From the NCBI GenBank assembly GCA_965178125.1, contig OZ237744.1, forward strand, positions 806,001 to 870,000: DNA of 64,000 bases, in the 5' to 3' direction. Below are positions 26,296 through 49,500 of this stretch, piece by piece. The notes under the pieces were generated by a model. That model was not told the DNA's origin, ran no database searches, and saw nothing but the letters and a program-made list of their open reading frames with translations. How positions within the stretch are numbered: position 1 is the stretch's first letter; each line of letters begins with the position of its first letter. The DNA comes from Bilabrum cf. latius. Taxonomy: Eukaryota. The translations under genes were made by a program, and so were the position numbers.

Positions 26296-27284
26296 ATGGC
26301 TGAGACTGATTGGAACGCTATCTGCCAGGAGATTCTTGATGTGAGAACGGGGGTTTAATGCATTTAAGCGCGAAACTGTGACCTATTGTGGGCATGCCTA
26401 CCAGATCTGCTGCCACATTGCACCGTCTCCGGCGATTCGCAGACCAAGACTTGCTACGCTGTGATCACAGCCGACACTGAGGGTAACGTGTACTATGCCG
26501 CGCCTCTCGATGATGGAGGTAACTTCCAGTACAACGTGAGTAGCTTTAATCGTCGACTAGTCTTGCGGATGCCAGCCACGTTCACGGCAGCGTTTGCCGC
26601 AGTCAACCGTTCGTCAGCGTCGGTTATCAGCCAATCCAATAGCGCGGTGCAATCATCATTGTACTTGTGGTGTGCTGTATTCGTGCGATGCCTGGGCTTG
26701 GATGTGGACGCATGGCTTGGGTCGTGGATCCACGTAGCGGTATCATGGCTCGGATTGGCAAGTTCTGGCGCTAGATGCCCAAATACTCTCATCTTCCGCG
26801 CCAGAACGTTTTTTATTTTATCCCATCTTACGGTTTATGCCTTGCAAAATCCTCCTGGACTCCCCAAATCGCGTCGCAGCTGTACGGCGGTGCGCAGGGC
26901 GACGCCTACGAGGCCGAAGTGACCCAGGAGGACGGCTCCAAGAAGTCGGAGTCGGTCGACGAGGTAAACAACTTGCTGCTCGTGCTCAAGGGTGAGGACG
27001 CCAAGATCCCCACTGGGCATGGCGTGCGCATCAATGGCACCAAGTACATGAAGGTCGGCCTCAAGGTCGAGAACGAGACCTACAAGGCCCCTTGCTCCGA
27101 CGGTGTGCATGACATCAAGGTCAAGCAGACGCACCACTTCAAGAAGGGATCTGAGGCTGCCTGCGTGCTGGAGCAGGGCGAGTACGTGGTCATCTGCTTG
27201 TGCGACGCGTCCAAGCCGGAGCAGCAGTCCGCCCTGGCCGCCAACGCGGCCGCTGGTGCCTTCTACTGGCTGTTCGGCGAGTAA
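26296..27284 (+). CDS. Profilin (form with acidic beta-hairpin insert)
   Basis: Motifs MAETDWNAI, YEAEVTQEDGSKKSESVDE, GVRINGTKYM. Exons 26296-26340, 26443-26535, 26880-27284; TAA stop. Confidence 0.85.
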
Positions 27285-27539
27285 ATAACAGGTCCATGCC
27301 TGCTGTTTGAAGGGATTTGCAGCGCGGCTGTCGGAATCGTTTCTGCCGCTGTGGGCCACGAAAGAGATCCACACGGATCCATGGGGTTTCCTCTGGACCG
27401 AAGGACCCTAGGTTGAAACTGCCGTGAATTGCTGCTGATGCGCCTTTCTTTCACGAATGCTTTCTATCAAAGCGAAACTGGCCCTTCAATCAATCTTTCC
27501 ACGACTGGGAACCCCCAATTTCGCCCGAGAATGCGACCA

Positions 27540-27658
27540 TCATCCCACACCGCCGGCTGCCTGCTTTTTCCTAGCCAAGTACGCCTTGAAGCCGAGCACC
27601 GGCTTCTTGCTCTCAGAAGCAGATGGAGCGACCCCGGATGTGGTGGCACCACTGCTAG

Positions 27659-27712
<54 letters not shown>

Positions 27713-29844
27713 CGACCCCGCCTGCAGATGCCCCCGCCCTGCTCCCGCCGCCCCCAATGGCCTCCCGCAGCGCCGCATCGACGTCCACGCCGCCCACCGC
27801 CGCCCTGGTCTCCAGCACAGAGCCCCGACCGGCGCCCCTGCGAGCGGCCGAGGGCCTCGAGGGGCTGGCACCCAGCTTAGAGAGGAGCGTGCCGCCGCCC
27901 GCGGCACCTCCCGCAGCGGCCCCAACCCCATCACCATCACCCTCGCCCTCGCCCTCGCCCTCCTCTGCTGCCTTCCCCCCTTCCCCGTCCTAGCCCTTGT
28001 CGCCCGCCCCAATCTTCCAGAGGATCTCTACTTTGCGCTCCCTCCGGATGAAACCCACCGCCTTGTTCCTCACGTGGTGCTGGTACTTGGCGTCTTTCTT
28101 CAGCCTGGCTTGTTCCCTGGCAGCGTTCTGCTCGGCCTTGCGGTTTGCCGCTCGGAACCGGTTGTTGATGGCGCTGGCGGTCCTCATGGAGACCGTCCTC
28201 TCCCTTCCAGACCTCTGGTCCATCTCCCCGCGGATGGCCTCCAGATGCCTCTTGGCCAGAGCGATCTGCTTGTCGAACTTGCCACCGATCTGCTGCGCCT
28301 CGAGCTCCAGCTGCTCGGCCCTCCGCCGCGCGGCAGGCTCGCTGCCCGCCTCCTGCAGTATCTTCTCCTTGGCCGCCATTGGCTTGGCCACCTCCCTCTT
28401 CCTGGACTCGGCCAGTGACTGGAGCCTCTGCTCCAGCTCGATCTTGTACAGGGTGGGATTACCCACCTTCCTCGGGTCAAACGAGGCCTGCTTCATGGCG
28501 AGCATTTTCTCGATGTCTTCCGTCGTGTACGTGTGGTTCTTCCTCACCCGCTCCGCCCGGCGTCGCCTCCGCCTCAGGTCGGCAGGGGTAGGGGGCTCCA
28601 CCTGGGACTGTCTACACTCGTGCAGGAAGGCCTGGAGCTCCTCATCGGTGGCTCGCTGGTCGCTCACAAGCATCACACGGAAGGGCTTGGTGTCCTTTGG
28701 GTCTCCTTGGTACAGCACGAGCCTCCTAAACGTCTTGATTTTCTCTCCCCGGACCACCACGTCGTAGCCGGTGCTGCCCCTCGCGACCTCCTTGATCCTG
28801 CACAGTCGGTAGACCCTCTGGCTCGTGTCCTTGTCCATTCCCAGCAGAACCCGGACGAACATTCCCTTGACCATGTCCTTAAAGTATGGCTCCAGGAAGA
28901 AGTGCAGCAGGAACTGCCTCGTGAGCCGAGCTTGGTTCACATCCCGCACCGTCAGCGGCTCCTGCCTCTCCTTCTCCAAGCGGACCTGCCGGGCCTTCTC
29001 TTCCTCTTCCACGTCGCTGTCGTACTCGTCGTGGTCGATGGCCTGCTCCCGCATGTCTGCAGTCCCGTCGAAGCCCTCGTCCTCGTCGAGCAGCTGCTCC
29101 TCGAAGGCGAGCAGCCCCTCCTCGTCCTCGGGGTCGTAACCGCCCGCACCGCTTGAGGCCCCGGCCCCGCGCTTCTTGGCAAACTCACGCTGTTTACGTT
29201 TTCGCCGCTCTGCGCGTGTCTCCTGCTCGAAATCGCTGTCCTCGTCCTCGCTGCCTGCGCCCTTTGTGACCACGCGGCCGGAGGTGTCAACTCCCGTAAG
29301 GCTCTCTTCGCTGTCGCTGCCGTCATCCGCTCTCCTGGACCTGCGACGAAGCCGCTTGCCGCCTACTTCCGTTGTGTCTTCTTCGCTGTCCTCGTCGTCG
29401 TCCTCATCCGCATCCCCCTCCTCCTCCTCCTCATCCTCGTCGTCGTCTTGCACCTGGACGCCTCCGGTCGACTACTGCCGCTCGGCGAAGAGCTACATGT
29501 CCAAGTCATCATCTCTAGCATCCCTACGTTTAGCTAAGACTTGCTCCCTCTCTACCTGCGGCAATTCAAAGGACAAGGGCGCTACAAATCTGGCAGCCTG
29601 GTGTATTCGGCCTGGGGTGCTACAGTACGACCGGAGCGCACTAGCAGCGGGGTCGTGAAATCAAACTGAAACATAATCTCACCTCCGTCAAGCCATCCAG
29701 GTACTCTTGGTCATCCTCATCGCCAATGCAGTTTTCATCGAATCCATCGGCAAAAAACTTGCGGTCCTCATCCTCCAGTCGAGCTTTTTTCGCAGCTGGT
29801 CCTCCCCCTGATGATTTCTTCCTTTTGGTGCCAGGGGTAGACAT
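27540..29844 (-). CDS. RTF1: RNA polymerase-associated protein RTF1 (Plus3 domain)
   Basis: LDGLTE|VEREQVLAKR across intron 29556-29682; Plus3 motif RLTRQFLLHFFLEPYFKDMVKGMFVRVLLG...YRLCRI. TAG at 29493, 29472, 27990; TGA 27540-27542. Confidence 0.88.
27660..27710. repeat. (CTG/CAG)n microsatellite, about 17 units, encoding poly-Ser in the RTF1 tail
   Basis: Uninterrupted ctg run; read as AGC codons on the minus strand. Confidence 0.95.
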
Positions 29845-30028
29845 GGAGGATGCCTGTTCGCCCGCAGTAGGGTAGCGGTGGGACAAACACGGAATCATTG
29901 ACAAATATGGTTACGTTCGAAATATGATATAATGCAAATGCATTGCACTGTAATCCTTGAAGCCAGCGCCATCATTATTCGATTCTTGCGCGGAGTAGTA
30001 CGATGACTAGGCTTCAGCTTTGATCGTC

Positions 30029-33000
30029 ATGAAATATATGAACTCTAATAGTGTGCTAGAAAGGCTCCAAAGTGGAGAATCAGATGGAAAGGCCTCTTAT
30101 AAATTCTCAACTAGGGTGCACTGCACATTGCTGTGGCCTACGCTGCTCAACGCCATGAAAGGAGCCTTGGGCATATCGCTGCTATCGTTTCCATTTGCAG
30201 CATCTCTGGCTGGATGGCTTCCGGTGCTTCTCTTGATGCCACTCGTATTCGTTGGTGTTCGATTTGGATCGATGCTGCTAATGGACCTCGAACACGCCCT
30301 AGGCAGGCGTTCATCTGGGGAAAAAGGAGCAGGTCACAGCTTTGGGACTTCAGTAACTACTTTGCCGAGTCTTGGGGGCGAAGTTGGCGGACCAGTCATG
30401 TTCTGGGGACTGCAGGCGATCATTACACTTACTCAGGTTGGGCAAGCTGCGGCGTATTTGATCTTCATTGCCTCAAATTTGCAATCCTTTGAAGTAATGG
30501 GAAGAAACTTGACGTTAGACGGCATGATTGTGCTCACTCTAGTAAGTGCTGTGCCGCTGATTATGGTTCGCCGCCTCACAAACCTGCAGCTGTGCTCGTG
30601 CGTGGGCCTCGTGGCATTGCTCGCCGCGATCGTTGCGCTAGCCATTCGGTTCGCGACCGGTCCTCCTCTTGGAATAGAATTGGACGACGATGTTGGGGCG
30701 CCCAACTTGGGCGAAGCGCCGGGCCAGGGCTCTGGCGACGTGACTGGCGGCAGCAGCAGCCTCGCACAGCTAGCGATCCACGAGCTCGTGGATCCAGACC
30801 AGTCACCGGCATCGCGAGTCGCCGTCCGTGCGGGGCTCCTGCACGATTCGGAAAGTAGTGGTCATGCGAGCGCAGGCCGCAGTGTTGCGGTGCAGGCCGG
30901 AGCGGTGCTTGCTGGTGGGCTCCTGAGGAGTGATGGCGACGAGGCCAGGTTTGCGACCAGTTTTGAGAGAACACGCGGGGAGTCAAACTCGTGGGGCTCG
31001 GCCCTGTCATCATCATAGTATCTGCCTGCCTTTCGTGGCACCGGCCTGTTCCGGTTCCTCGGAATCAGCGTGCTCGCAGCGGAGGGCATCGTGCACATCC
31101 TGCCCCTGGTGGCGGACCTGCACAGGGAGGTCGGTGCCGCGGTGGCAAAGGCGCGGGGCAGAGGGGGCAAGGAAGGTGGCTCGCATCGTGGAGGTGGACA
31201 GGATGGTGGAACTGCGGGCGCAGGCACGGGTGGTGCAGAGGGACAGGGCAGCGAGCAGCCGGACGGGATTTGGGCAGCTCGTAGACCCAGGACGGGTGCT
31301 AGCCACACTGAACAAGATGGGTCAGACAGCAATCCTGAGGAGGAAAGAGACGACGCCGAGTCTCGTTCATTGCGATTGCGGGCTGGTGGTGGAAAGTCCA
31401 ATGACAGTGGGGAACCAGACGAGGCAACGGCTCGGTCTGACGATGCTACTGTGGAAGCTAGCTTGGGTACTGCTGCGAGCAACGTCGCTGGTAGCTCTCA
31501 GAAAGAGGCAGCCCAGTCTCTGCCGGGCCTTGCCAGTGGTGGCTTTCCTCCGCTTGAAGGCCACCAGATGCACCGCTTCGACTCCTTCCCGAGCTCTGAA
31601 GCTGCCAGTGACGGTTGCTTCCCCTCGAGTTGCTGCGTGTGCTGTGCCCAGCCCTCGGCATTGTGTCCGACTACCGCTGATGAGTTGCACGCCGCCTCCA
31701 TGCAGATCATGCGAACAGAAGGTACGGGGGGCGCAACCGCTGTGAAGGCGCGAGTGACAAGGAGCATGGCACTCATGTTCGACATCGTGCTGGCGGTGCA
31801 GGTCGTGCTGCTCATCGTGTTTGGGCTCTGGGTGTGGGCAGCGACCCATTCGGGATCGCTTTGGAGCAACGAGCCGGCAGGTGCGGTCCACAGCGTCATC
31901 ACCAAGAGCCTCGGCGTCACGGGGACCGATCAAGTTGTGCGGTTGCTCCTGTCGGGGTACATATTCGCCTCGGTGCCGCTGTCCCTGTTCCCTGTCTCAG
32001 AGGCGATCGAGGCAGCCATCGTGGGGGCTTCTGGGGCGGTAGTGCGAGAGACCAGCGACGGGGTGCAGGCAAACGACGGGATAGGCAGCGCGGGCGATGC
32101 TGCAGACGCGAATGGTACGAGCCAAGAAAGGTCGGAGCGAACCGAGCAGCAGAAGAAGCAGGATGGTACTGCCGCAGCGACCGCCACAAGCGGCGACACT
32201 CCTTGGACTTCGTGCCTAGTCTCTCGCTCTAGCCTGCCAGGGCACGAGCACGAAGTTACTGCCTCGTGGGCCGTGTCAATCACCGTACGGCTCGTGCTGG
32301 TTGCGGCGGTGCTGGCCATCTCGCTTAGGTCCGACAGGCTCGGCAAACTGCTGGCACTCGTCGGCTGGCTTGGGTTGGGTGGCACTGGCTTCGCGGCAGC
32401 TCCCGTGATGTACTTGATGTGGTACAGGGCACGGAAGCTGCAGCTAGCGAGAGAGCAGGTGGCAGTGCAGCTGCAGTCGTGGTGGCTGCGCACGCGTGCA
32501 GCACTGCGACGATCGTCCACCGCGACGACACGTCAGGCTCCGCCAGCTTCCTTTGAGGGAGGCAATGGCGTCGCAGGCGGTGCGCCAAGCGAGGCTGAAG
32601 CCGATGCGGGAAAGGGACAATTAGATTCTCGAAGCGATTCTAACGACAAGTAGAGCAGAGGTGTGTCAGCATCGGCCCCGGTGGTTGGCATGCGCGGGGA
32701 CGCGACCAGCGCCGGGAGGCAAGAGGCCGGGCAGGAGCAGGAGCAGGAGCAGGCCGCACTGCTTCCAGCCGCAGTGCCGCCCTTTCCATCCATGCACTGG
32801 GGCAAGGGCAAGGCGCTGCCAACCGGCTCTGTGCAGCACCTGCAAGACATGCTCGGGAGGCATCGATGGCACCCAGTAGTGGACGAGTGCAAGTGGAGGG
32901 TTGATACCGACGGGAAGCTGGTGGATGCTGTGGATAGGATCGACCGGTCGATGGGACTGCAGGCGCCATCTGCAAGCCGATCTACAGGTACAGCGGGGAA

Positions 33001-33646
33001 CAGCATGGATGCGAGCTCATCAGGATGCCTCGTCTCGTGGTTCGTCTGGCTGCGGTTTGCCCTGTGCGGGTGTTCGAGGAGGCGGTGCTGCTGGTGCTGC
33101 GGCGCCCCGGGGCCGTCCTTCGATCTTGGTTGCGGGGACTGTCGCCTGCTGCGCACGCTCCTGTGCCTCGGACACGCTGTCCCGGCGGCGCAGGCCGACG
33201 AAGACACCCTGATGCACTCTTGGTGGGCCAGCTCGGGGCTGGGGCTAGGGAGGTACAGGGTAGGCGGGGCGGCGCTGGGGATGCAGGAGACGAGCAGCAG
33301 CAGCAGCAGCAACAGTAGTAGCCTGCGGGGGTCGGCCGGTTCAGGTATGACGAGTGAGGTGGTAGGCTTCCTTGACGCTGTGGCGCCCTGCTTATCGGGG
33401 CCCACTGTCGAGATGCTCGTCGGTCCGAGACATCGTACGTGCTGCGATAGGACGCAGCGAAGGGCGTCGAGCTCGAACTCGACTGGTATTTCGAAGCAGC
33501 TGCTTGCTGGCGCGACTGCTTGGGACGGCAACGAGGTGCTTTTGGTGTGCTACGCAGTGCTGGGGCTGTCTGGCTCTTTGGCCGGTGCGTGGTACACATT
33601 CGCCGAGGCAGATCTCGATCAAGGTGCGCACGATTTCGTCGAATGA
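30029..33646 (+). CDS. Amino acid transporter (AAAP/SLC36-38-like) with large low-complexity loops
   Basis: Motifs LLNAMKGALGISLLSFPFAASLAGW, TQVGQAAAYLIFIASNL, FLGISVLAAEGIVHILPL, PLSLFPVSEAIE, LLALVGWLG. TAG at 31016 and 32651; TGA stop. Confidence 0.85.
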
Positions 33647-33815
33647 ATTGCTCGCCGTGGAGACAGATCAATTTAACTAGTATGGCAATCGCGTTATATT
33701 CCATTGTGTTGCAGCCGCGGGTCGCCAAACCGGGCTGTGACGCCTGCCATGGCGACTCACCCGCACAAATTCAGCCGCTCAGGCATGCACGGGCTTGCAC
33801 GCATTCGAGCAATCC

Positions 33816-34982
33816 TTATTTGTAGAACCTGATTGGCTCGTACATTAGGTCTTGGCACCCCGGCGGCGGGCACTCTGGCTTCTCGTGCGTTGCCTGGGAG
33901 TAGTAGAAGAGGGCCGTCTCGCCGACACTGTTGAAGTTGGGGTCATCGCTCGCAGGATCCAGCACGGAGGCGTAGTTCTAGACCGAAGGCGGGATGGTGG
34001 CGTTGTCTTGCATGGGACGGATGGGCACTGGCTGGCCCCAGTGCACCAGATCATCGCTAAGGCTGAACTGGTACCAAGGGACCCTGCCCCGGCCCTGCAT
34101 CACCCCCTGCCCCACGCCCAGAAACGCGCCGTAAAACGTGGACCACTTGAGCGATAGTATAGTCAGCGTGGGAATGGATTCTAATGGCGCGCACGCATGA
34201 GCGCTAGCGGTCTGGGGATCGAACCCCGCAGCGTAGGGGTCTGCGAACCGCACGGAAAACGAGGTGCCGTTCCAGCCCCGCCACGAGCGCACATCTGCAA
34301 CATCTGCTGTGCGCAGCATACACGAGCCGTGGCCCATGCCCATGTACGGCCTGCGGTTGTGCACCGCCATATAGTACATGCCGTCTTTGGGTGAACGCAC
34401 GATCCCGGATGGGTCTCCGTATCCCCAGCCGGTGTGGTCCGGCTGGTACTCGTACGGTGCGGCCGCCATGAGGTGCCCTGGAGGTGCTGCCGTATGGTGA
34501 AACGTTCTGCCGCCGTCATTTGATATTGTAGAAGTCATCGCCACCATCCAGCACTGCGCCGTTTGCTGCTGGCGCGGAGCAGTGCAGTTTCCGAAATCCC
34601 ACCCGTGGTATTCCTGGTGCATGTATGCTATTACGCTTCCATTGGACAGCATCCAAGGCGCAAGCATCCACTCGTGATCAGAGTACAGGCTGTTGTCTCC
34701 ACTGAACGAGCTATTCCACAGAACGTCACACTATTTCGAAGTATTGGTCAGACTTGGTCCTCGCGATGCTCGCACGGTCGCCCAAGAAGCCACCAGCGTG
34801 ACCTCTCCCTTTGAATCTCTCCATGCTCGGGCTGGGCCGTCTGGAATGTCGTGATATCCACAGGATTTATTCGTGGAACCCGCCATCCAAACCACGACTG
34901 GAGCAGCGGTGAACTCTACCCTAGGTATCGCGAGCGAGACGGTACTGGAGCTGATTGCGATCAGTGCAAAAAGTAATTGCAT
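33816..34982 (-). CDS. Secreted uncharacterised protein, probable beta-propeller glycosidase-like, bacterial-like
   Basis: Signal peptide; motifs DIPDGPARAWRD, HQEYHG, Asp-box-like SNDGGRTF and SDDLVHW, YASVLDPASDDPNF. TAG at 34731 and 33978; TAA 33816-33818; no introns seen. Confidence 0.7.
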
Positions 34983-35093
34983 CAATTAATATGGCTGCGG
35001 TTTCAACTGTCCGGAACTGATCAAGATAGCCCCCCTGGCACGCGTACTTTGCCGCTGCTTGTGACGATGGCTTAACTGCAACTCGTCGATTGA

Positions 35094-36200
35094 ATGTCAT
35101 TATTGTGCAGCATGGCCCTATTCGCTGTCATGCTCTCTGCTCAAGCTCATGCAAGTTCCATCGCAGGCCTTCCATCAAAAAACGAGATTCATGTGGCCAT
35201 GCAACGGGCCGATGACAAGCTAAAGGAAACGATGAAAGACTGGATCTGCAGCTGGACGCGGGGCGTGTATTTTGTCGGCGAGACCGCACGCTGGCAGTCT
35301 ACGTCGAATGCAACATTACTAAAGTACATGGTGGAGTGGGCAAATCGCAACAAGTGGTCGCCCTGCCCGGACGAGGACCACGGGGATCCAACTTTCGGAG
35401 ACAACCAGGCGTGCGCGGCGACGTACCTGAACCTGTACGACCTGGACCCATCGGAGCACAAGAAATCGATCATAGAGCCTACTCTATCTGCATTTGACAT
35501 GCAGCTGCGCAACGGTTCGGACGCCTACTGGTGGTGGGTGGACGCCGTGTTCATGGCCGGCCCTGTCTGGGCGCACGCCGCGCAGCTCACCGGCGACGCG
35601 AGGTACAGCACGAAGCTCATGCGAATGTTCAACGCGACCTCAGGCAGCGCGTACCACCTGTGGAATCCCTCGTACGGGCTTTACTACCGGGACATGCGGT
35701 ACCTCGGCATGACCTTCCCGAACGGCGCAATGTACGCGTGGGGCCGCGGGAACGGTTGGGCGATCGCAGCTCTTGCTCGCATCCTAGAGCACACCTCAGG
35801 CTCCCCCAGCGACCCTGCGTTTCAGTTCTGGCTCGAGCGGTACCGCACGATGGCGCAGAGCCTGCTGCCCCTGCAGAACAGTACGGACGGCATGTGGCGT
35901 GCATCGCTCACGGACCCAGCCGTGGTGCCAAACCCCGAGACTACGGCATCTGCTCTGAACACATTTGCCCTGGCATACGGGCTGAGGCAAGGATTTCTCT
36001 CCCCTGCCAAGTACGCCGGTGCCGTGCTTAACGGCTGGAACGGACTCGCGACCATTGCCCAGCAGCCGGATGGCCTCGTGGGGTACTGCCAGGGCATCGG
36101 GCACGACCCCGAGCCTGCCAACGCGACCAGCACGTCGGACTTCTGCGTGGGCGTGTTCCTGCTCGCGGGGAGCGAGGTGGCCAAGCTCGCCTCTTCGTGA
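35094..36200 (+). CDS. Secreted glycoside hydrolase family 105/88 (unsaturated uronyl hydrolase-like)
   Basis: Motifs WWWVDAVFMAGP, GLYYRD, WGRGNGW, ETTASAL, VGYCQGIG, GVFLLAGSEV; signal peptide; intronless; TGA stop. Confidence 0.9.
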   Translation: MSLLCSMALFAVMLSAQAHASSIAGLPSKNEIHVAMQRADDKLKETMKDWICSWTRGVYFVGETARWQSTSNATLLKYMVEWANRNKWSPCPDEDHGDPTFGDNQACAATYLNLYDLDPSEHKKSIIEPTLSAFDMQLRNGSDAYWWWVDAVFMAGPVWAHAAQLTGDARYSTKLMRMFNATSGSAYHLWNPSYGLYYRDMRYLGMTFPNGAMYAWGRGNGWAIAALARILEHTSGSPSDPAFQFWLERYRTMAQSLLPLQNSTDGMWRASLTDPAVVPNPETTASALNTFALAYGLRQGFLSPAKYAGAVLNGWNGLATIAQQPDGLVGYCQGIGHDPEPANATSTSDFCVGVFLLAGSEVAKLASS

Positions 36201-36652
36201 ATTGTGAAGGTGACGTGGCGAGGCCCCGTGGCCATCAGTGCTCTTGGTGACCCTTCGGTTTCGCCTGCGCGGCGGGCGCGTGACGGCACCTGGTGAGACG
36301 CCGAGCCCTTACGTACGGCGTGGCCAGGTCCAGTGTTTCTGGGCGCGACTGAAGGGTTGCAGGCATCGATGCGCAATAATAACAGCTGCAATCAATTCAT
36401 TTCAAACAAATGATGCACGATGTAGGGGTTACATGCAGCTATCCCCATTTCGAGAGTTGCAGTTGGTTCGAAAGAAACGACCAGTACCAGTCCAGCCGGA
36501 AACTGTAAAATCAGCGATGAAAGCTCCGTCTCGTGGTTCAAAACAAGGTATGAAACATACTCCCATCACTGCTGGGCGATTTCTAACGATCAGACGGCAT
36601 GCTGTGGTCACCCCAGTCGTCACGCACCCTCCTACCATCCTCGACCTGCTGT

Positions 36653-37030
36653 TCAGGCGGTCGTGGGCTTCTTGTCGGCGCCAGGGCGGGCACCAGGGCC
36701 ATCACGGCGCTCGGCCGGGCGGCGGAAGCGGCGCGGGGGCGCTCGGATCCTCCTGGCCTCGCGGTTACGCACGCGCACGATACGCGAGTGCACGGCGCAA
36801 GAGATGCAATGGTAAGACTTCTCGTAGATCTTGGGAAGCTCGTAATCGTTTCCGTAGACAGACGCAGCCTTCATGTCGTTCATAACACCCTGGTCGACCA
36901 AGTTCTTCGTCTTGAAGCGGGCCACGGCCTTGTCCTTGGGGGGGTTGCACTGGCACTTGCCGCAGTTCACGAGGCAAGTCTTGCCACGACCATGGCGGGA
37001 TCGGCCTCCGTTACGGCGCTTCTTGGGCAT
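36653..37030 (-). CDS. RPS26: 40S ribosomal protein S26 (eS26)
   Basis: Motifs MPKKRRNGGRSRHGRG, PKDKAV, LPKIY, CISCAVHSRIVRVR; TGA stop. Confidence 0.97.
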   Translation of the reverse strand: MPKKRRNGGRSRHGRGKTCLVNCGKCQCNPPKDKAVARFKTKNLVDQGVMNDMKAASVYGNDYELPKIYEKSYHCISCAVHSRIVRVRNREARRIRAPPRRFRRPAERRDGPGARPGADKKPTTA

Positions 37031-37393: not shown

Positions 37394-38295
37394 ATGCAAC
37401 TAATTCTGGACCCATTGATCAGAAATTGGGTTCTTCTCCCTCTTACGGTTATTATCGTGTTGGTATGTGCCATGAGATTGGTTGCGTTGCAGCTAATTCG
37501 ACCGCAGAAAGCTATGAAGAAACTCGAGGTCGGGCAGCGGCAGCTAGTTGCCAGGTCAAAGCGCCTGCGGGACCGTAGCATGTGGATTGAGAAGTCTGGC
37601 TTTGACATGCGAAAGGTAAGTGCGGCTTATTGATCTCGATAATGATCTAGATTCGCAATAAGAAACATATTCGCCCGCACTGCCATCCACAACAGAGTTG
37701 TCCGCAGCACTATCTGGTTGGTCAGAAAGGGAAGGCATTGCGATAGAAGGACGTCCGTGGTCCACCAGCAAACCCAATGTCAATGCTTGATGGACTGAAA
37801 TCTCAAGCTGTGTTCATGCTATCGAACGTTGGACTAGGCATGCTGATCAATGCTCTATTTGCCGGCTTTGTGCTGGTGAAGCTGCCATTTGGTTTGGCAA
37901 ACCGGTTTAAGGATCTGACATAGCGTGATATACGCCTCCCATCTTTGGAGGCGTCGTATGTGACGTCGTTCTCGTGGTACATGATGGTCATCTACGGCAC
38001 CCGCGGCCTGATCGAGCTGTTCATGGGAAGCGCCAGCACTGCAGCTCTAGACGAGGCACAAATGGCGCAGGCGAGGATGGGACTTATGGGTGGGGGTGGT
38101 GCAGGGTAGTACAACCCCGCGCAAGCATTTGCGCAGGAGAAGGTGAACCTGAAACTGAGCAAAGCCAGGCCCAGCATGACTGCCGGGTCATGCAAGCGGC
38201 TGCAGCAGGCCAAGGAGAGGGGGCAGTGGACCAAGTGGACGCAGCAGTGCGCACTGGAAGCATCAGATGCGTGCGATGCTAGGTTTTCATTCTGA
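37394..38295 (+). CDS. EMC3: ER membrane protein complex subunit 3
   Basis: Motifs LILDPLIRNWVLLPL and FAGFVLVKLPFGLANRFKDLT[TAG]RDI...YVTSFSWY. Intron 37616-37707; TAG at 37744, 37921, 38107; TGA 38293-38295. Confidence 0.92.
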
Positions 38296-38416
38296 ATGCT
38301 CGATCGATAGCAACAAGCGAGCTTGGGAAGCCACAATTTGCGTTCAGAACTGCATGCACTGCACACATTACAATACAAACGCCACCGATCGGATCCAAGC
38401 GATCGAAGCAGACTCA

Positions 38417-39469
38417 TCAGCGCAAATAGGAAGCGCCATTCACATCGATCACCGTCCCAGTCGCGAAGGGGGCCCTGCCAGACGCCAGGAACTCCACAGC
38501 AGCCGCTACCTCGCCGGGCCTCGCGACCCTTCCCCAGCTGCTCTGCGCCTTGACCGCCGGCCCCCTCGCAGGATCCGCAAGCACCCCGGCCGCCATAGGG
38601 GTCGCCACGAATCCAGGAGCCACGGCCGTGACCACGACACCCAGCCCGCCCAGCCGCTGCGCGAGGGACTGTGTCGCGCTAATGAGGGCGGCTTTGTGCG
38701 CGCCGTACGCCACTGCGTTGGGCTCCCCGCGGTATGCGCCTCGGCTGGCGACATTCACGATTGAGCCCGAGGCTGTGGCGGCGATTCCTCCTCGCTTCAG
38801 CTCCGTGTCGCGATGGCGAGACTGGACGAGCTTGGCGAACTGACGGGACAGGGCCAGAGGAGCCGCCAGGTTGACGGCAAGCGAGCGAGCGAGAACGCCG
38901 TCCCAGTCTTCCTTGCCGCTGGAGAGCATGTCTACCTCTTCGTACAGGCCAGCATTGTTAATGAGAATGTCAAGCTTCTGCTGGCCTTTCGATTGGGAGC
39001 GAATCAACCCATCTGAACTTTGTACAAGGCAATCCAGATCCGCACAGCTGCTTGCGTCCGACTTGCTTCCCTTCGCTGCACCCGTGTCCAGCGATAATGA
39101 AGGCGTGAATCGACAGCCGATTATCGGGAATACTTGATCGTTTGAAACGCGGACGGCCATGCACTGGTCTTTTGTTTCACTGGCCCCCGCCTAGTTGCTG
39201 CCGAAGTGGATTACAACCGAGTAGCCTCTTTTAGCCATCTCAACACATACAGCGCGCCCTATTCCAGACGATGCTCCTGTTACGAGTGCACCCTTTGGGG
39301 CTGCTTTCTGGTCGTCGCAATCCCCTCGGAACAACTTGCCTGTGGAGCTGCTCGATTGCAAGGCACCCTTCCGGGCCCTCATCCACAAGCCAAAAATAGC
39401 GCCAATCAAGGCACCACCAGCTACTGCTCCACACAGAAACTACGGGAAGCCGTTTTTTGCGCTTGACAT
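38417..39469 (-). CDS. Short-chain dehydrogenase/reductase with N-terminal hydrophobic anchor
   Basis: Motifs ALVTGASSGIG, LINNAG, IVNVAS, YGAHK, VAPGFVATPM, IDVNGASY. TAG at 39440 and 39191 (between the Rossmann motif and catalytic half); ends TGA TGA. Confidence 0.92.
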
Positions 39470-39673
39470 GCTTTCTAGCCGTTTGATGAAAGTGCTACTG
39501 GGCAAGAGGCTGCGTTCAAGATGCTCGCACTCGGAATGCGACGAACTGCAACTGCGTGCCTGCGACACTTGATGACTGGGCATAACCAAGACCCATCCTG
39601 GAATTCGACGGTAATTCTAGATTCTCCCCAACTTAAGCTGGTGCATTATTTGGAACTGGGGTGAACTGTTCCA

Positions 39674-41677
39674 ATGGGTTCCATTAGCCCAGCAGTGGAC
39701 CCGCCTCCAGTGCATGCCCGACAGGCTAGCACTGATGCGGTACTTTCGTTTAATAGCTTGAGCTCAGACTCGATCGTGGGTCTTGGAATGCCATCATATG
39801 GACGGCCTAGGTGCGCCAAGTGGGTAGTAGCAGTATGCAGCCTTGCATTTGCGTCGAGCATCGGTGCTGACTACGTATGGTTCATGTCAAATATTATAAA
39901 TACCAAGGATGAGGCCGTTAGACTCATGAGAACGCAGCACGGGCTATGGATGGGAGTCGTTGCCGGTGCGAGTCTGATGCTTCCCCTCGTTCTGGCTTTG
40001 ATTCTCAATCTGCTAGGGTGCTGCTTCGCCTGCGGGCAGAAACTCATCGAAGGAAACGGGTCTGGTGTTGGAGCTGCCCGACAGAAGGCAATGGCACACA
40101 GCGCATTCGACGTGGTCGGCCATGTGGGCCGCGTGATCCTCTCCCCGGTGCAGCCACTCGCCGTCGTGCTCATACCACTGGACGACCAGGGCAGGGTGGA
40201 TCCCAGGCAGTTCTTGCGGCTGTCATTCGACTCGTTCATTGCAAGCACCATATTTGTGGGGTTTCACATAACGGCCCAGCTGCTGGTGCAGGCACGCGTG
40301 CAGGTAGAGACGGATGGTCTTGCGGATGTGTGCTACGTGATTTGTCTAGTATTTGGTCTGATGGTGCTCAGCGTGCGGTTTCCCATAATGGACTTGTACA
40401 TTGGAGCAGGTAGGGACACGGATTTAAACCAAAGGCTGGTCCGACCAAGGGGCAGCGTTGTCGTGAATGCCTTGGTGCTGAGCTTTGCCGCCCTGCACTG
40501 CTTCTGCGGGGCTGGAATCGCCATCCTAGCCTTCAGTCTGTTCAGAAATACGTACCACGTTAGAGATGGCCACGGGATCCATATCCTGGCACGGCGGCAG
40601 GGGAGTGATTTCAGCGACGTGGCCCCGAGTGGAGCGTTTGAGGAACGGGCCGGGGAACACGCCGGGGAACAAACCGACGATCGTGTCAGTGGTGATCTTG
40701 GTGCCTCCTTTGGTGCATCCCAGGCGTACGGCCTCACCCCCTTGGTCCAGGCGGGAGTGTTCGGGTCGTACGCGCTGGTGGCCGCGATGCAGCTCGCTTA
40801 CTTGCACACGTTCGGTGACATGGGAATCGCGGGCGGTTGGAATGCGTGGCGGTCCACGACGTAGGGCCGCAGCTGCTTGGAGCTGACGTATCGATTCGTG
40901 TCGCTCGTCCTGCTGCTGCCCTTGATGTGCTCCATGCTGGCACTCATCTGCCCCGGCCTCGCGCTGCTTACCCGCATACTTTCAGGTGCTCTTTTTGACT
41001 CCGGAACGAGGTACAGGTACGTACGGGGCGAGGTGGGCGCGATTTGGGACATCCACGGCCACGCGACGCTGGGCCAGGGTCTTGCCCAGTCAGTCGTGAT
41101 CTTTGCCGGAAGCGTCGCAGCTCTCGTGGACTTTGAGCTCCGCGCCGTGCCGCCCCCTCCCATTGCCCAATGGATCATTCTCGTGGTTTCAGTCGCTTCT
41201 GCGATGCTCGTCATCGTGAACGCGTTTCTTGTCGCGGTCCTGCGACCGGCTGGCTGTTGCGGATGGTCGCACGAGGGTATGATGCATGCCATCTAGACTT
41301 GTGAAACTCCCTGCTGCAAATAGCTTTTAGGGACGGTATTTTTGGACGGGACTGAAACAGTAGGTTCCCAGGGCGATGATGCACGCAGAAACGGAAATTC
41401 CTCGGCGTCGCAGCGCCTGCTCAACGGAGCCAGCGTGAACCGACCGGCAGGTACTGCGGCCGGACAGCTCCACCACCCCGGAGATTCACGGCAACGCGAT
41501 GATAGGATGGAAAACCTGCTTGAGCGACTTGCAGAAGAAAGTAGTGACTCCGGCATGAGCTGTGGAGGGGCTGGAACCCCGAGTAGCATAGATTCGCCTC
41601 GGCGTGCTATCGCTAGCACCAACGAATTAGGCAGAACCAAGAGCTCCCTGCAGATGATCACGCTCACCGACGCCTGA
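39674..41677 (+). CDS. Multi-pass membrane protein of unknown function
   Basis: Many hydrophobic segments; ORFs 39674, 40877 and 41342 join in one frame through TAGs at 40862, 41294, 41321; TGA stop. Confidence 0.7.
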
Positions 41678-41889
41678 CCTCGAGTCTGCGTCTGGTCTGG
41701 CATGCTATCAGAGCACAGGCCCTTCGGTGACGGCCAGCGATGCGCCCTCAGGCTGCAGACGTCCAGGCAGGCTCCGGATCCTGTGATGTTGCTTCGGCAC
41801 CGTTTGCGTTTGTTGTTGTTCAAAGACGCACTCAAGGACAAATTTGCCACTTGAATGGTTCTGACATCCTGAAAATACCTTGTACGTTC

Positions 41890-44800
41890 ATGGCACATGC
41901 AGCAAAGCACCTGAAGTAGAATATTTGCGGAGCACTCTTGGCCGGATTCCTTTCGACAGCGAATGCCATCCACATATCCGATGCCATGGCGCGAAGTGGA
42001 CCCCAAATCATGATGTCTAGTGCAAGCTATGTAAACACTTGTAATGGTGAGCATGCCTGCTTATTGTATTCATATGAATCGAAGCGAACCTTTTAAATTG
42101 CACAAGAGCGGTTCATCACTTACAAATTTCTTGCAGCCACCTGGTTCGCCACTCGAGGCCCCAGCTCCATCGGCATCGGTGTCCATGCCACTCGAGACAA
42201 GCGTGTCATCGACTCTGCCGATGCCGCGGCGCGCCCGTCTCCTGATGGCGCTGACCTGGCCGGCTGCGAGCTGGTGCCCATCCCATGGACCCCTCGGGTC
42301 CCAGGCAACATGTCTCGGTGGCAGTGGGGCGGGGCCATGCCTGGGGGTATTGGAGGTGCGATGGGTCCGATCGCGGCGTGCAGGCAGAACGGCACTGACG
42401 GCGCTTCTGCGGCCATCGAGGAGTGTCTGGTGAACGCGACGCTGTCGGCTCCGATGGACGGGAGGTACCCGGCTGCAGCATCCCCGCAGGAGGCCCCATA
42501 TGCTGTGGGTGTGTCTCCTCGGAGCAGCGCGTTGTTGCCTCCGACTCGATCAGTGGAGCCGTGGACGACGGAGGAGTGGGTATTCCTCTTCCAGCAGGAC
42601 GGTGATATAGGCGATTGGCAGACTGGCGAGCTCTTGACAGGATCGTACCAGAGATACCGGGGAATATCGTCAGTGGGTGAATCCAAGCATCCGTGGGCGC
42701 CCACCTATTACAGCGCATTTCTGAACGCAGTTTCCTTTGGGCAGTACGTCGTTTTTGCCCCGTTCCGAGACCCGATAACGGACTTGTACCGGAGAGTAGG
42801 GACTGCGTATCTTCCCATGGTGTCTTGCGGTGCAGCTGTGCTGACCGATGTGTGCACTCCTGCAGGTGTACCAATCGCACCAAATGATACGTGCAGATAG
42901 GCCACAATGTGGCACAAAGTTCGGGCGAATGTGTCCAAATAGGCGTGCGAGCTGCACCCAGCGTAGCCGTCTGCTGCAGCCGCTTAGACATTCCCAATAA
43001 ACAATGGCTTGGCATCGAGCGTTATCAAGGATGTGCTGGTGTCCCACATCCCCAACCCACCAGGTACTACTTCATACCCATTTCCAGTGTCTGGAGCAGG
43101 TGTCGACAACAGGTGGCATCAGCTAGTCACCGTGGTGTATCCGCCTGGGACCGTGGCAATTATGTCGGTGCAGAGCGACGGAGACAGGACAACATTTCCA
43201 CCGCTGCAATACCCTTGGCAACTGAATCGTGGGTACGTGGTGCAGACGATGATGAACATAGCCCAGATTCCTGCTCTTTTTTCGCCTAACGCTGATGCGC
43301 AGTACAGCTACTCAGATGCTGGTTCCATGGTATGCGACAAAGGTGGATACGTGCAGACGCATGGCATGCCCAGCAATTTCACTTTCGACGCCTTTGTGTC
43401 CGCCCAGGTCATCTTGGACGATCCATCCTGTGTCGCCACGCAGACATGCAGTCCCGTGGCTCCCAGGAACCAGACACCTGGCAGCCCCGCCGTGTAGCAG
43501 GCCGTGAAGGACTGGATCAGGGATGTGTACTGGAAGCAGCCCATAGGCACTCGCATCCCACGCTTCGGATGCGCTGTTGACTACTTCATGCCGCCGTATG
43601 ACAACATATTCAGTATATTTGATCTGGTGCACATGGACTACCCCGCTGCAGCCTCCACCCGCATGGCCACCATCGGAGGATATGGCATGCCGGACCAGGC
43701 CCCAGCCAGAGGGACATGGAATGCGTCATCTAGCCATTCCACAACTACCAGTAGTATCCCAAGCTCAAAGGAAAAGTAGCGTCCTTCTGGCAGAATCGAT
43801 TCAAGCAGGATTCCCTGGCGACCTGTGCGACCAGCCGATCCAAACGGCCCTCAGCCATTACCGCGAGATCGGCCCGTGCTGTAGGGGCCCAAGGCCAGGT
43901 ACAGGGGTGCGGCGCTCTGGAGGCTGACGGCGCCGCCCGTCAACAAGTCCCTGCCGGCCATCCAGGGCGGGTACTGGACATGCATGGAGACGTCGCCGCT
44001 GGGCGCGTTCTTCATGCGTCCTGTGTGTCGGGCGGAGTGTTTGGATCCGTCGCGCGTGGCCGTGGACGTGGGCCTGCAGCGGCGGGCTGGCGATGGGTCT
44101 GGGCATGATGCGGGTCAGCATGGCATGTCTCTGGTGGCATCGCTGGCGCGTCCGTGGCTGTCGGCGTGGGGCGGGTATCCGTCGCTGGTGCAGAGCGAGA
44201 GCGTGGTGCCTCGATCGGACCGTCAGGGCGGGGGCATGGTGGCATCGTTCGGGAGCTGGTCTGGGTGGGGCGCGTGGCATGCGCCTCGGTACAGGCTGGG
44301 AGACGAGGTGGAGACGGACATGCGGTGCGTGCGCGACGTGGGCAGCAGCGTGTCGTGGCAGTCATTGTGGGCGCAGCGGGAGCCGACGAGCCGCGCGGAC
44401 GTGTGGCTGACTCTGTCATTCGACCGCGGCTACTGGCCAGCGGCATAGTCCAGCTCGGTGGGGGATGTGGGTCTGGACTACCCTCAGCCCACAGCGGCGC
44501 AGGTGCGTCGGCTGGAGGCGGAGGTGTCGGCCGACGTGGGCGACTTGCTGGGCGAGGTGGACTGGACTGCGCGCGGGCGGGGCGTGGAGGTGGGGATCGG
44601 GGAGCGTGTGAACAGGACAGCAGGCAACGACACGGTGGTGGCGCGACTGCAGACGCGGTCGATCGAGAGTCGCGTGATGTGGGTGCGGGCGCCTGGGCGT
44701 GTGGGTGTGGACTCGTTCCCGATGCATGTGCGTGTGCAAGTGTCTCTGAAGGAGCTGGCAGCAGTGCTGTATCCTTCATCTGTGAGTGGTGGCGTGCAGC

Positions 44801-46566
44801 GTGGTCGGTCGGCCGGGACACTTGCTCAGTAGCTGGTGGGCATTTTGCGCGGGCATCGTCCCGGGGCGGAGGGGGGAGCGTGGCTACCGGCGGTGGACGC
44901 AGGGAGTGTGTCATACCGCGTGCGTCTGCCTTGCTTGTCGGGCGGATATGGGTCGGATGCTCGTGAGTGCGGGGCGGTAGGCGCGGGATCATGGGTGAGC
45001 GCGTCTGGCGGGGTGTAGCTGGGGGTGTTGTTTATGCTGATTGTAGGTGTGTTTGGGGTAGTCGCAGGCTGGTGGATGCGTGGCTAGTACCTCAAGGACC
45101 GCATCGCAGTTGCAAATAGGAAGCCACTGCTGTCTGTTGCCTCCTCCAGAACACCAGACTCAGTAGAACATAGACTTAGGCTGGCTGATGCAGGGTCTTA
45201 CAGTAGATCAGAAGAGGAATTGACCTCATTTTCATGGAGATATGCACAGCTGTGTGGTGGGTTGGTGGGTGTGTTGAGTCTGTGGCGCTGGGCGCAGTAT
45301 GTTTGCCTTGGTGTCCTTCTTTTGTCCGTCAGGCTGAGCGGCCCCGGAACGTTGGTATTGATAGGCCTGCTGGTCGCTATTATAGGCCGAGAAGCCTTGC
45401 AATGGCTCTATGGCGGGACATTGTACAGCGGTAGCGAGTTGTCTGATGAGCTCTTGGCCATGGACGAGATCTCGCGGCCGGGGTTGCGCACGAGTTCATC
45501 TGGTCTCGGGTCAGTTCCAAGAATAATTCGCCACCGGAGAACAAGCGAGCTTTGGAAGTCCTCGGATGAACCAGTCGGTGCCAGGTTGTCGAGATAGACG
45601 GGTGGTGCCAAGGGCTCGAGCTACGCCCACAATGATATTATCTCGGCATCGCCGTCTTCGCCAAACGAACAGTCTACGGATGGTAGTTTGAACGAGTAGG
45701 ACGAAGATGACCCAGTTTTTCGCCTTTTTTCATAGCAAGGTAGTTCAATGTTCAAGAATCCAGGCGGTCCTGGACGGCTATAGACCAACGGCCGCTCGTA
45801 GGCAGCTGGATCTCAGCCTGATGACCTGGTGCTTGGCTGGAGGTAGTCTACTTAGGGCGCTGACACAACCCTCAGCAGCTTCAGTCGCGATGAATCTATA
45901 CCGTCGCAAGAAAAGGACTTCCAATTAGACTAGGATTGCTCCATAGAAGACTTGGAGATCGAGCTCCCTGGGGTAGCGGGCGCAGATGAGACCGTGGAGC
46001 CCAGTAGACCAGCGCCGGTGGCCGTCACGCGGCGAGCAACGCGACTAGTACCCGGAATTCTCGCTGCACACATGGGCAGGCACCTGGGTGCAAGTATTCT
46101 TGTCAGACTCTTGTCGGCGATTCAGTGGGACGCCTTCCAGCTGCTGTGGAGTGGCGCAGCGGAGTCGCTAGATCCAGTTGCTCCGTATTTACGCAAACTC
46201 GCAAGGGAGGGGTTGGCCAGTGGTGACATGGCTCCTCCGAGCCGACAATTTCTAATGCGAGCGCTTGGGTTGGCGTGGTTAGAGCGTACATCATCGTGGT
46301 TTCGATCGCTGGAAGACGCCTGCGTGGCTTTTGCTGTTGCCTGGTCGGCCCTGTGTGCCTTTGGGATCTGTAAGTGGTAGCAATGCATGGTGTCCTAGGC
46401 TGCTTCTCCTGAGGCGATTGCGTTCATAGCCACTGCACCAGAGCTTTATTGGGAGCATCTCGTTGGGGCCACTGCGACAACAGCGATTCTGACTCTAGCG
46501 CTGATGGTTGCATCATGCTGTTGGACAGTTTGGATGCATTCGCAAGCGTGCATGCGGTGGCAATGA
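41890..46566 (+). CDS. Variable surface/membrane protein family, copy A
   Basis: Signal-peptide exon 41890-42046, intron 42047-42136, then one frame broken only by TAGs to TGA 46564-46566. Cys-containing ectodomain followed by several TM segments. Confidence 0.8.
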
Positions 46567-46583
46567 AACAGGCAAATGAAACT

Positions 46584-49500
46584 TTAGCGTGTGGACACAA
46601 CAGTCACCGTCCAAACCACCGACAGCACAAGCGCCACACCCGACAGCCCCACAATCCACACCGTCGTGCCCACCACATGATCCCAGTACAGCGATGGGTC
46701 TGTTGCCAACATCGCCATCGCTGACTAAGACAGGCGCTGCCCAACCACGCACTGCCGCCACCCACATGCCCCCGAAGCGCAAGCCAAAGCCCAGCTGAAG
46801 CCCCCGATCACACACGCATCTTCCAAGCCACGGAACCACGCAGCCGCCCCGTCCACCCAGCTGGCCCCGACAAGTCTCAGGACGCGCTGCCGCTCACTGC
46901 ACGGGCTCCAAGCACCAGCCGTCTCACGATGCTGGTCGTACCGCCTGTGAGCCAGCGGATCGAGGGCTTCGGATGCGCCGGACCAGAGGAGCTGCAGAGC
47001 ATCCCACTGCAGCGTGGCAAGAAATCGCACCAGGATGGTAGCTCCGATGTGCTGGCTGGCATGCTGCCGAAGCGCCCTAGAAATAGCAAGGACGGGGCTT
47101 CTGCCAGCCGGCTTATGCGGGTGGCTGACCATACTGCGCACTATTCGAGAAGCTGCAGGCTCTTGACCTAGGTTAGCGGGCTCTTCAGTGCTGCCATCGG
47201 CACTGCTTGAGTCCATTGAGTTATGCCAGTGCCCTCGTGACAAACTGCCAGCTACCGCCCCAATGCCCATTTCACCTTCACTGGAGGAATCTGACGATGC
47301 TTCGAACACCGATGTGAAAGCCTCGATGACCTTGTCGTTAGCTTGCTAGTTTGAGCTCCACTCCGTCGAAGTCGCCCGCACTGCAAAATCATCTTCAGGT
47401 ACGGATGACGCTTCACCGACATTCGGTTCGCCAGAGTTACTCGATGACTACCTGTGCTTGCGGCTAGAATTAAACTAGCGCGTAAGCCCTGCTCTAGTCC
47501 CACCGGCCTTGGGGCGTGATTTACATGGCAGCTGGAGCTCTGGTGCAACAGCTGGCGACTGCCTTGTTGCAGGGGTCAATGCCCCTACTGAAAGCAGCGG
47601 AATGGGCAGGATCAGCACACGAAGGATGCTTGATACCACGATGCCCCCGAGCACCAGCAGCCCAGGGCTGCTCAGACGGACATTCACCAACACCACGCCA
47701 AGACTTACATACTGCGCCCAGCGCCACAGACTCAACACACCCACCAGCCCACCACACAGCTGGCCACAGCGCAACGGCTCACCAACCAAGGCTGCACAGC
47801 GCCATCCTGACTCTGATTGGCCCCCTGCAGCATCAGTGCCACTGTGCTCGCTGCTGCGATGCTGGATGCTCACACCCGCTGTCAGATTCGACACGGGAGT
47901 ACTAGCAAAGCTGCGGTCGCTCTCCGCACCTGGTAACCACTCGCCAACCAGCAATGGTGCCGTCAATGACCGCGAGTGGCGCTCATGCAGATACCGACCA
48001 CGCATCCACCAGCCTGTGACTACCCCAAACACACCTACAATCAGCATAAACAACACCCCCAGCTACACCCCGCCAGACACGCTCACCCATGATCCCGCGC
48101 CTACCGCCCCGCACTCACGAGCATCCGACCCATATCTGCCCGACAAGCAAGGCAGACGCACGCGGTATGACACACTCCCTGCGTCCACCGCCGGCAGCCA
48201 CGCTCCCCCCTTCGCCCCGGGACGATGCCCGCGCAAAATGCCCACCAGCTACTGAGCAAGTGTCCCGGCCGACCGACCACGCTGCACGCCACCACTCACA
48301 GACGAAGGATACAACACTGCTCCCAGCTCCTTCAGAGACACTTGCACACGCACATGCATCGGGAACGAGTCCACACCCACACGCCCAGGCGCCCGCACCC
48401 ACATCACGCGACTCTCGATCGACCGCGTCTGCAGTCGCGCCACCACCGTGTCGTTGCCTGCTGTCCTGTTCACACGCTCCCCGATCCCCACCTCCACGCC
48501 CCGCCCGCGCACAGTCCAGTCCACCTCGCCCAGCAAGTCGCCCACGTCGGCCGACACCTCCGCCTCCAGCCGACGCACCTGCGCCGCTGTGGGCTGAGGG
48601 TAGTCCAGACCCACATCCCCCACCGAGCTGGACTACGCCGCTGGCCAGTAGCTGCGGTCGAATGACAGAGTCAGCCACACGTCCGCGCGGCTCGTCGGCT
48701 CCCGCTGCGCCCACAGCGACTGCCACGACACGCTGCTGCCCACGTCGCGCACGCACCGCATGTCCGTCTCCACCTCGTCTCCCAGCCTGTACCGAGGCGC
48801 ATGCCACGCGCCCCACCCAGACCAGCTCCCGAACGATGCCACCATGCCTCCGCCCTGACGGTCCGATCGAGGCACCACGCTCTCGCTCTGCACCAGCGAC
48901 GGATACCCGCCCCACGCCGACAGCCACGGACGCGCCAGCGATGCCACCAGAGACATGCCATGCTGACCCGCATCATGCCCAGACCCATCGCCAGCCCGCC
49001 GCTGCAGGCCCACGTCCACGGCCACACGCGACGGATCCAAACACTCCGCCCGACACACAGGACGCATGAAGAACGCGCCCAGCGGCGACGTCTCCATGCA
49101 TGTCCAGTACCCGCCCTGGATGGCCGGCAGGGACTTGTTGACGGGCGGCGCCGTCAGCCTCCAGAGCGCCGCACCCCTGTACCTGGCCTTGGGCCCCTAC
49201 AGCACGGGCCGGTCGGGCGACAGGGGCTGAGGGCCGTCTGGATCGGCTGGTCGCACAGGTCGCCAGGGAATCCTGCTTGAATCGATTCTGCCAGAAGGAC
49301 GCTACTTTTCCTTTGAGCTTGGGATACTACTGGTAGTTGTGGAATGACTAGATGACGCATTCCATGTCCCTCTGGCTGGGGCCTGGTCCGGCATGCCATA
49401 TCCTCCGATGGCGGCCATGCGGGTGGAGGCTGCAGCGGGGTAGTCCATGTGCACAGGTGCGACTGATGGAGGAATCAATAAACCAGATGGATAGCCATCT

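Follow-up and report, generated by a model that had tools for sequence, protein, structure and literature searches.

UAG as a probable glutamine codon, with UAA and UGA kept as stops, in a GC-rich nuclear region of Bilabrum cf. latius

Looking across a 64-kb stretch of the Bilabrum cf. latius genome (contig OZ237744.1 of assembly GCA_965178125.1, forward-strand positions 806,001 to 870,000; hereafter 'the window', meaning the whole 64,000 nucleotides analysed, with coordinates counted from its first letter), we see that the codon UAG lies within genes as a sense codon, whilst UAA and UGA close them. The code that we favour for this DNA is one in which UAG is read as glutamine and both UAA and UGA act as stops, i.e. 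the assignment listed as NCBI table 15, to which we give a probability of roughly 0.82. The initial annotation had proposed that UAG is sense, that UAA and UGA are stops and hence that the two UAR codons (UAA and UAG) are decoupled; every test run in the window backs that proposal.

The window is eukaryotic nuclear DNA with a GC content of 60%, and holds about 25 genes with GT-AG introns (at least one of which, in the EMC3 gene, has the canonical borders GTAAGT...CAG). Pfam and PDB searches of its frames identify ordinary nuclear genes.

In-frame codons and the reading of TAG

In a curated set of 18 coding sequences (CDS; 14,604 codons) we count 95 in-frame TAGs but neither a TAA nor a TGA; the remaining two frames of this DNA, taken as the control, contain 219 TAG, 85 TAA and 507 TGA (Fisher P = 6.6e-12 when TAA and TAG are compared in and out of frame). 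The earlier remark that no TAA lies inside an intact frame is thus borne out for all 14,604 codons. TAG is present in 14 of the 18 CDS, among them those for Rib72, EMC3, a mitochondrial carrier, a short-chain dehydrogenase (SDR), Rtf1 and RRM proteins; two of these genes are located as follows:

22921..25557, minus strand: Rib72/EFHC axonemal gene (Pfam DM10, E = 1.8e-63; PDB RIB72, E = 9.6e-63)
24763-24765, 24715-24717 and 23407-23409, minus strand: in-frame TAGs of the Rib72 gene
38414..39715, minus strand: SDR gene with three in-frame TAGs (Pfam adh_short_C2, E = 5.8e-32)

Under the standard code the window splits into short frames, and with TAG as a sense codon frames of 1,400–1,750 amino acids appear; making TAA a sense codon brings no comparable gain. 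A further census, in which frames were bounded by TGA alone, is free of the assumption that TAA is a stop and so avoids circularity: in the real gene frames TAG is again scattered throughout, with TAA confined to the proposed stop or to sequence ahead of the first ATG.

These counts bear directly on an alternative in which both UAR codons have been reassigned, as in the ciliate-type table 6, TAA also being sense but, given the GC-rich DNA, absent from our genes by chance. TAA is indeed rare overall (421 occurrences on both strands of the whole window, versus 910 of TAG and 1,615 of TGA), A is avoided at the third codon position (A/G ratios of 0.12–0.67), and UAR = Gln is given as the commonest nuclear variant by McGowan et al. 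(2024; PMC11687900). Were TAA a synonym of TAG, however, the CAA/CAG ratio of 0.269 would lead us to expect 25.6 in-frame occurrences (probability of finding none, 7.6e-12), or 14.8 once the non-independent paralogues B–D, described below, are set aside (P = 3.6e-7); even at the strongest A-avoidance, taken from the lowest A/G ratio amongst six codon pairs, the expectation is 11.5 (P = 1e-5). With none seen against 11–26 expected, and with the 85 off-frame copies in the same genes, the absence of TAA is therefore no by-product of GC richness; moreover, the three TAAs that do stand in gene frames coincide with C-termini defined by homology or structure (see next section). We consider a reassignment of both codons extremely improbable.

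As to what TAG encodes, comparison with related sequences makes glutamine the most likely answer. BLOSUM62 scoring of 22 TAG sites, with relatives of more than 75% identity left out, gives 37.3 for Gln, ahead of Arg (17.4), Lys (15.6) and Glu (12.7); Ser is negative (−10.3) and Leu lies below it. Exact matches at the scored sites sum to 7.5 for Gln and 3.9 for Arg. The Gln residues found at these positions in database proteins of 79–99% identity (P0001-P0003, P0122) were not used as evidence, because a gene caller working with table 15 may itself have translated TAG into them. Individual sites add to this picture: the TAG at 37921..37923 (+) of EMC3 corresponds to Gln in both the human and yeast proteins (8eoi_C/6ww7_C; 6wb9_3), and for two of the four TAGs in the carrier gene (11305-11307 and 11347-11349, +) a homologue of 41% identity (P0123) has Gln.

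Further support comes from four large membrane-protein paralogues, A to D, that occupy 42310-63760:

42310..46566, plus strand: paralogue A, ends on TGA 46564-46566, 21 in-frame TAGs
46584..50819, minus strand: paralogue B, ends on TAA 46584-46586, 11 in-frame TAGs
51819..56102, minus strand: paralogue C, ends on TGA, eight in-frame TAGs
59198..63760, minus strand: paralogue D, ends on TGA, 10 in-frame TAGs

In their codon alignment TAG is kept in all four copies at four columns. Where it varies, no replacement is more frequent than CAG/CAA, which supplies 12 of the 78 alternative codons; if only columns with nine or more of 12 flanking columns identical are considered, two varying ones are left, and there CAG makes up four of four.

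Could UAG instead stand for another amino acid? Candidates would be Leu, its meaning in the rhizarian exLh, Ser, as reported for Scotinosphaera, and Glu, Lys or Arg. Certain sites lend themselves to this, with TAG aligned to Lys or Arg in Rib72 and at one carrier position, to Glu or Asp in the propeller protein introduced below, and to Leu at one Rib72 site in the 83% relatives. Against such readings stand the summed scores and exact matches given above, in which Gln leads Arg, Lys and Glu, Ser is negative and Leu falls outside the best eight residues. A spread over Glu, Lys, Arg, Asp and Asn is in any case normal for Gln positions, because in Iotanema only 41–44% of the conserved positions with UAG or a canonical Gln codon are reported to be Gln-dominated (Panek et al. 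2017; PMC5304391). Altogether we judge a different amino acid to be quite improbable. Trp, a candidate raised by a single Rib72 site, was rejected: TGG never alternates with TAG in the paralogues, and Trp is absent from the best eight.

Stops at the ends of genes

Twenty-five gene ends are recognisable in the window; 21 close on TGA, three on TAA and one on a TAA that we treat as ambiguous, with none that falls on TAG or requires it. Amongst the eight ends checked by homology, a small sample, none is a TAG. The three clear TAAs lie at 27282-27284 (+), 33816-33818 (−) and 46584-46586 (−), as had been annotated, the last of them closing paralogue B and the others the following genes:

26856..27281, plus strand: profilin-like gene, last exon (142 amino acids, no TAG), stop TAA at 27282..27284, next TGA 44 codons on
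33816..34982, minus strand: secreted beta-propeller, glycosidase-like, ends on TAA, with in-frame TAGs at 34731-34733 and 33978-33980

All three TAAs sit at C-termini supported by homology or structure. Reading through them would add 15 codons to the propeller, 44 to the profilin-like protein and 154 to paralogue B, in the latter case antisense into gene A.

The propeller gives the fullest comparison: of 110 homologues found, 62 were aligned, and 21 of these have no residue past the last column of the query (one of them being truncated 31 residues earlier), whilst the extension is two residues or fewer in 43 and six or fewer in 56. The family end motif ...RDLVRVPIRFSK corresponds to ...QDLMYEPIRFYK-TAA in the query. 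In the AlphaFold model (mean predicted local distance difference test score, pLDDT, 93.1) the last strand (residues 377–387) closes the fold, and Foldseek matches it to sialidase and GH43 propellers, in keeping with the earlier label of 'secreted propeller'. The named homologues are all bacterial (Azospirillum, Jiangellales, Chloroflexota), an observation that hints at horizontal acquisition of the gene.

For the profilin-like protein an exhaustive search returned 24 relatives. Ten of these continue for 2–6 residues after the position that aligns with residue 141 of the query, and the query itself continues for one. Its match to the Pfam Profilin family (PF00235) is below threshold (19.5 bits versus a cut-off of 25; E = 1.1e-3), as is that of one of the eight relatives scanned. 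The AlphaFold model (pLDDT 79.6) has a C-terminal helix (125–140) as its last element and a poorly modelled N-terminal helix, the latter because the first exon is missing. Foldseek places the Plasmodium profilins 2jkg/2jkf first (E = 5e-5, template modelling score 0.54–0.58), with Toxoplasma 3nec next; the top five PDB matches are all Plasmodium or Toxoplasma profilins (E = 5e-5 to 5e-4), with further profilins behind them. The annotation as 'profilin' can therefore be kept, for a divergent member whose fold is supported by the model and the PDB matches even though the Pfam score is sub-threshold.

Paralogue B ends ...VVSTR-TAA, one codon earlier in the alignment than C and D, which both end ...LLACRN-TGA; the proximity of these ends had also been remarked upon previously, and holds.

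Six of the TGA ends are independently backed: those of Rib72 and the carrier by the ends of homologues (for Rib72, five of five database homologues share the same final residue), those of GH88, SDR and OSCP by the ends of Pfam profiles (the SDR match reaching profile position 233 of 236, five residues ahead of the stop), and that of NDUFS7. Our count of 21 agrees with the 'about 22' TGA-terminated frames reported initially. The accompanying statement that UGA dominates termination stands as a count (21 of the 24 unambiguous ends) but not as a separate feature of the termination machinery: the TGA:TAA ratio of about 7:1 at gene ends resembles that found off frame in the same genes (6:1) and in the whole window (3.8:1), so that with 60% GC and two stops the excess needs no special explanation. 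Tandem TGATGA is found, at the positions first given, in the Rib72 gene (22921-22926, −) and the SDR gene (38414-38419, −); as two of 19 ends (binomial P = 0.036) this exceeds chance only marginally and is suggestive at best.

The remaining, ambiguous end is the following:

15270..15272, minus strand: TAA closing the frame 15270-17165 shortly after a helicase-type Walker-A motif (Pfam AAA_11, E = 5.5e-4)

Past this TAA the sequence looks non-coding, with no further helicase motifs recognisable by eye, and the site is no GTAAGT-type donor such as that of the EMC3 intron. On these grounds we rejected it as a sense codon in a conserved gene; the frame reads as a truncated gene or pseudogene.

Within genes, TAG is distributed uniformly along the CDS (Kolmogorov–Smirnov P = 0.80), with two in the last 20 codons and four in the last 50, versus 2.45 and 6.13 expected.

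Some of what we find weighs against the table 15 assignment. There is no TAG in the last ten codons of 19 CDS, where about 1.2 would be expected, and in the Ank and RRM genes a TAG lies 15 and 19 codons, respectively, ahead of the TGA, where it could in principle be a real stop. These are features that a context-dependent code might produce, in which UAG is sense within genes and a stop at some of their ends, as in Condylostoma or the karyorelict ciliates; yet no homology-checked end falls on TAG, the distribution just described is uniform up to the last 20 and 50 codons, and the RRM protein keeps its Gly-rich composition unchanged past the late TAG. We thus regard a context-dependent code as very improbable, though in a sample of this size UAG may still have a weak dual role. 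A second group of observations concerns the amino acid. Several TAG sites are not Gln in homologues, and 22 scored sites is a modest number; the propeller's two TAGs align to Asp/Asn/Ser and to Glu/Asp, and the Rib72 TAG at 24715-24717, within the DM10 domain, is Trp in Chlamydomonas and mammals and Leu, Val or Ile in closer relatives, making it the clearest site at odds with conservation of Gln. The TAA at 15270 does follow a conserved Walker-A motif and might, less probably, be a rare sense codon or belong to an unusual splice. Finally, our basis is one 64-kb window with 24 unambiguous ends, from which the code of the whole genome can only be inferred, and the decoding mechanism would have to be deduced in the same way: the window contains no tRNA gene detectable by ARAGORN and no Rfam match, and none of the 48 frames scanned against Pfam has an eRF1 domain.

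Gene content and the paralogue cluster

Alongside Rib72 and the paralogues, the Pfam and PDB searches identify the following:

mitochondrial genes: complex I NDUFS7, ATP synthase OSCP and a mitochondrial carrier
other genes: Rtf1 Plus-3, amino-acid transporter, GH88, SDR, EMC3, GST, RRM proteins, ribosomal protein S26 and an ankyrin protein

For the carrier, a PDB search gave no match at 1e-5 and the homologue search only two proteins. The presence of NDUFS7, OSCP and the carrier marks the organism as an aerobe, and the gene content as a whole, with the Rib72/EFHC axonemal protein alongside the mitochondrial genes, as an aerobic, flagellum-bearing eukaryote. PDB comparison of RPS26 and NDUFS7 does not tell plants, animals and alveolates apart. 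The profilin-like protein is structurally nearest to the apicomplexan type, yet the same window encodes the complex I subunit NDUFS7. Apicomplexans and their close relatives are not known to possess complex I. Judged from the modelled profilin fold, the lineage signals of these two proteins would appear to be either contradictory or convergent.

Three genes are secreted and glycosidase-like: a GHL15-like gene (7982-9135, +), the sialidase/GH43-like propeller (33816-34982, −) and GH88 (35094-36200, +). The last exon of the GST gene (9331-9984, −) reaches its TGA only about 100 codons past the end of the GST_C match, which would mean either an intron that escaped recognition or a C-terminal extension of an unusual kind. 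In the raw sequence, the presumed intron between the two exons of an RRM gene (around 18700-19100, −) carries a long, imperfect tandem repeat with units such as GGATTGCCGCTCGGGTCTTTCGTTGGATTGGCT.

The four paralogues are mosaic. A central block (alignment columns 600–900) has about 99% nucleotide identity in all four, with flanks at 62–74% and a C-terminal third that is barely alignable, a pattern suggestive of gene conversion or else of a block under very strong constraint. Antisense to each block runs a TAG-free open reading frame (ORF) of 326 amino acids, at 44012-44992 (−), 48089-49069 (+), 53414-54394 (+) and 61069-62049 (+). Considered as genes, these were set aside as putative shadow frames of GC-rich DNA; an ORF at 27438-28418, also of 326 amino acids, is unrelated to them. 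Genes A and B are convergent and their stop codons, TGA and TAA respectively, lie only 17 bases apart (46564-46586), so that their 3' untranslated regions, if any, must overlap. Between C and D lies an open frame (56816-58816, +) with three in-frame TAGs and a YADD motif of reverse-transcriptase type; Pfam does not match it, and it may be a decayed retroelement.

Decoding, known codes and significance

Following the logic of Panek et al. (2017) and McGowan et al. (2024), UAG would be read by a tRNA-Gln with the anticodon CUA, one mutation away from tRNA-Gln(CUG). As such a tRNA could neither pair nor wobble with UAA, UAA could remain a stop. The release factor eRF1 would then either have a reduced affinity for UAG or merely be outcompeted there, such that discrimination by eRF1 against UAG alone, the mechanism favoured at the outset, may be one of two options, competition by the tRNA being the other. 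In the account of Panek et al. (2017; PMC5304391) the indispensable component is the tRNA with anticodon CUA, and changes in the N-domain of eRF1 (GTS, NIKS, YxCxxxF, position 69) are not uniform amongst the known cases: Iotanema has T32G, and the rhizarian only an L69A-type substitution, its conserved motifs showing no obvious change. A change in eRF1 would thus be plausible here but not required.

The initial annotation treated the decoupling of UAG from UAA as unprecedented, which it is not: although uncommon, it was published in 2017, when Panek et al. (BMC Biol 15:8; PMC5304391) described UAG = Leu in the rhizarian exLh and UAG = Gln in Iotanema spirale, both with UAA as the main stop. 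What sets the present case apart is the GC content of 60%, the aerobic gene content and UGA as the working stop. The likeness to Iotanema is close, in that UAG = Gln, UAA and UGA are dedicated stops, in-frame UAA and UGA are absent and, in the genes examined there, UAG ends none; the differences are that 104 of its 119 complete genes are reported to end on UAA and 15 on UGA, as compared with three TAA and 21 TGA here, and that Iotanema is an anaerobic fornicate, the window belonging to an aerobe (NDUFS7, OSCP, carrier) with 60% GC.

Three ciliate events were added by McGowan et al. (2024; PLoS Genet, PMC11687900), where Protocruzia tuzeti (Gln) and Scotinosphaera (Ser) are also listed. According to their data, Hartmannula sinica, Trochilia petrani and Protocruzia tuzeti have, as here, UAG alone reassigned to Gln, UAA as a stop and UAG distributed over the bodies of genes as a Gln codon would be (table 15); in these ciliates, however, UAA accounts for 86.9–98.3% of stops and UGA is the least used (1.7–13.1%), versus 21 of 24 here, and their GC content is 27.4–53.6%, as opposed to 60%. 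Nothing in the window points to a ciliate affinity. In the rhizarian exLh and the TARA phyllopharyngean ciliates (Leu) and in Scotinosphaera (Ser), UAG is reported to be decoupled with UAA and UGA as stops, again as here, but the amino acid differs, Leu and Ser both scoring negative at our 22 sites.

The UAR = Gln codes of NCBI table 6 (many ciliates, Hexamita, Streblomastix, some Ulvophyceae) share UAG = Gln, presumably through a tRNA-Gln derived from tRNA-Gln(CUG); they differ in that UAA is also Gln and UGA the sole stop, whereas in the window UAA has no in-frame occurrence and serves as the stop of three genes. Amoeboaphelidium protococcarum is likewise listed in the literature as UAR = Gln. 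Formally, the same table (TAG = Gln, 'genetic code 15') is described for amber-recoded crAss-like and Lak bacteriophages, but these are phage genomes in bacteria, whereas the window is nuclear, carries spliceosomal introns and encodes axonemal, mitochondrial and ribosomal proteins of a eukaryote. Full-text literature searches found no report of a GC-rich, UGA-dominant case of the UAG = Gln code; saying this, the code of this particular lineage may already have been described.

A wider reading, which we put forward tentatively and at somewhat less than even odds, is that UAG = Gln with UAA as a stop arose independently here, in a GC-rich aerobic flagellate outside the fornicates and without obvious ciliate traits. 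No earlier code of this kind may rely on UGA, the leakiest stop, for about 88% of termination; UAA is the main stop of Iotanema, of the rhizarian exLh and of the phyllopharyngean ciliates. The two tandem UGA-UGA ends may be a first sign that leakiness is compensated. If true, this would argue against codon capture and for an ambiguous intermediate in which tRNA-Gln(CUA) competes with eRF1, because at 60% GC UAG would not have been removed by AT pressure.

In practical terms, annotation under the standard code would truncate most of these genes, given TAG in 14 of the 18 curated CDS, and annotation under table 6 would run genes past their TAA stops. More broadly, nuclear codes that separate UAG from UAA tell us that the eukaryotic termination machinery can distinguish both codons, and only a handful of lineages are known to do so. 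A further case that is GC-rich and terminates on UGA would widen the known conditions for the capture of UAG, and would serve as a contrast case for asking which changes in eRF1 or tRNA are truly required.

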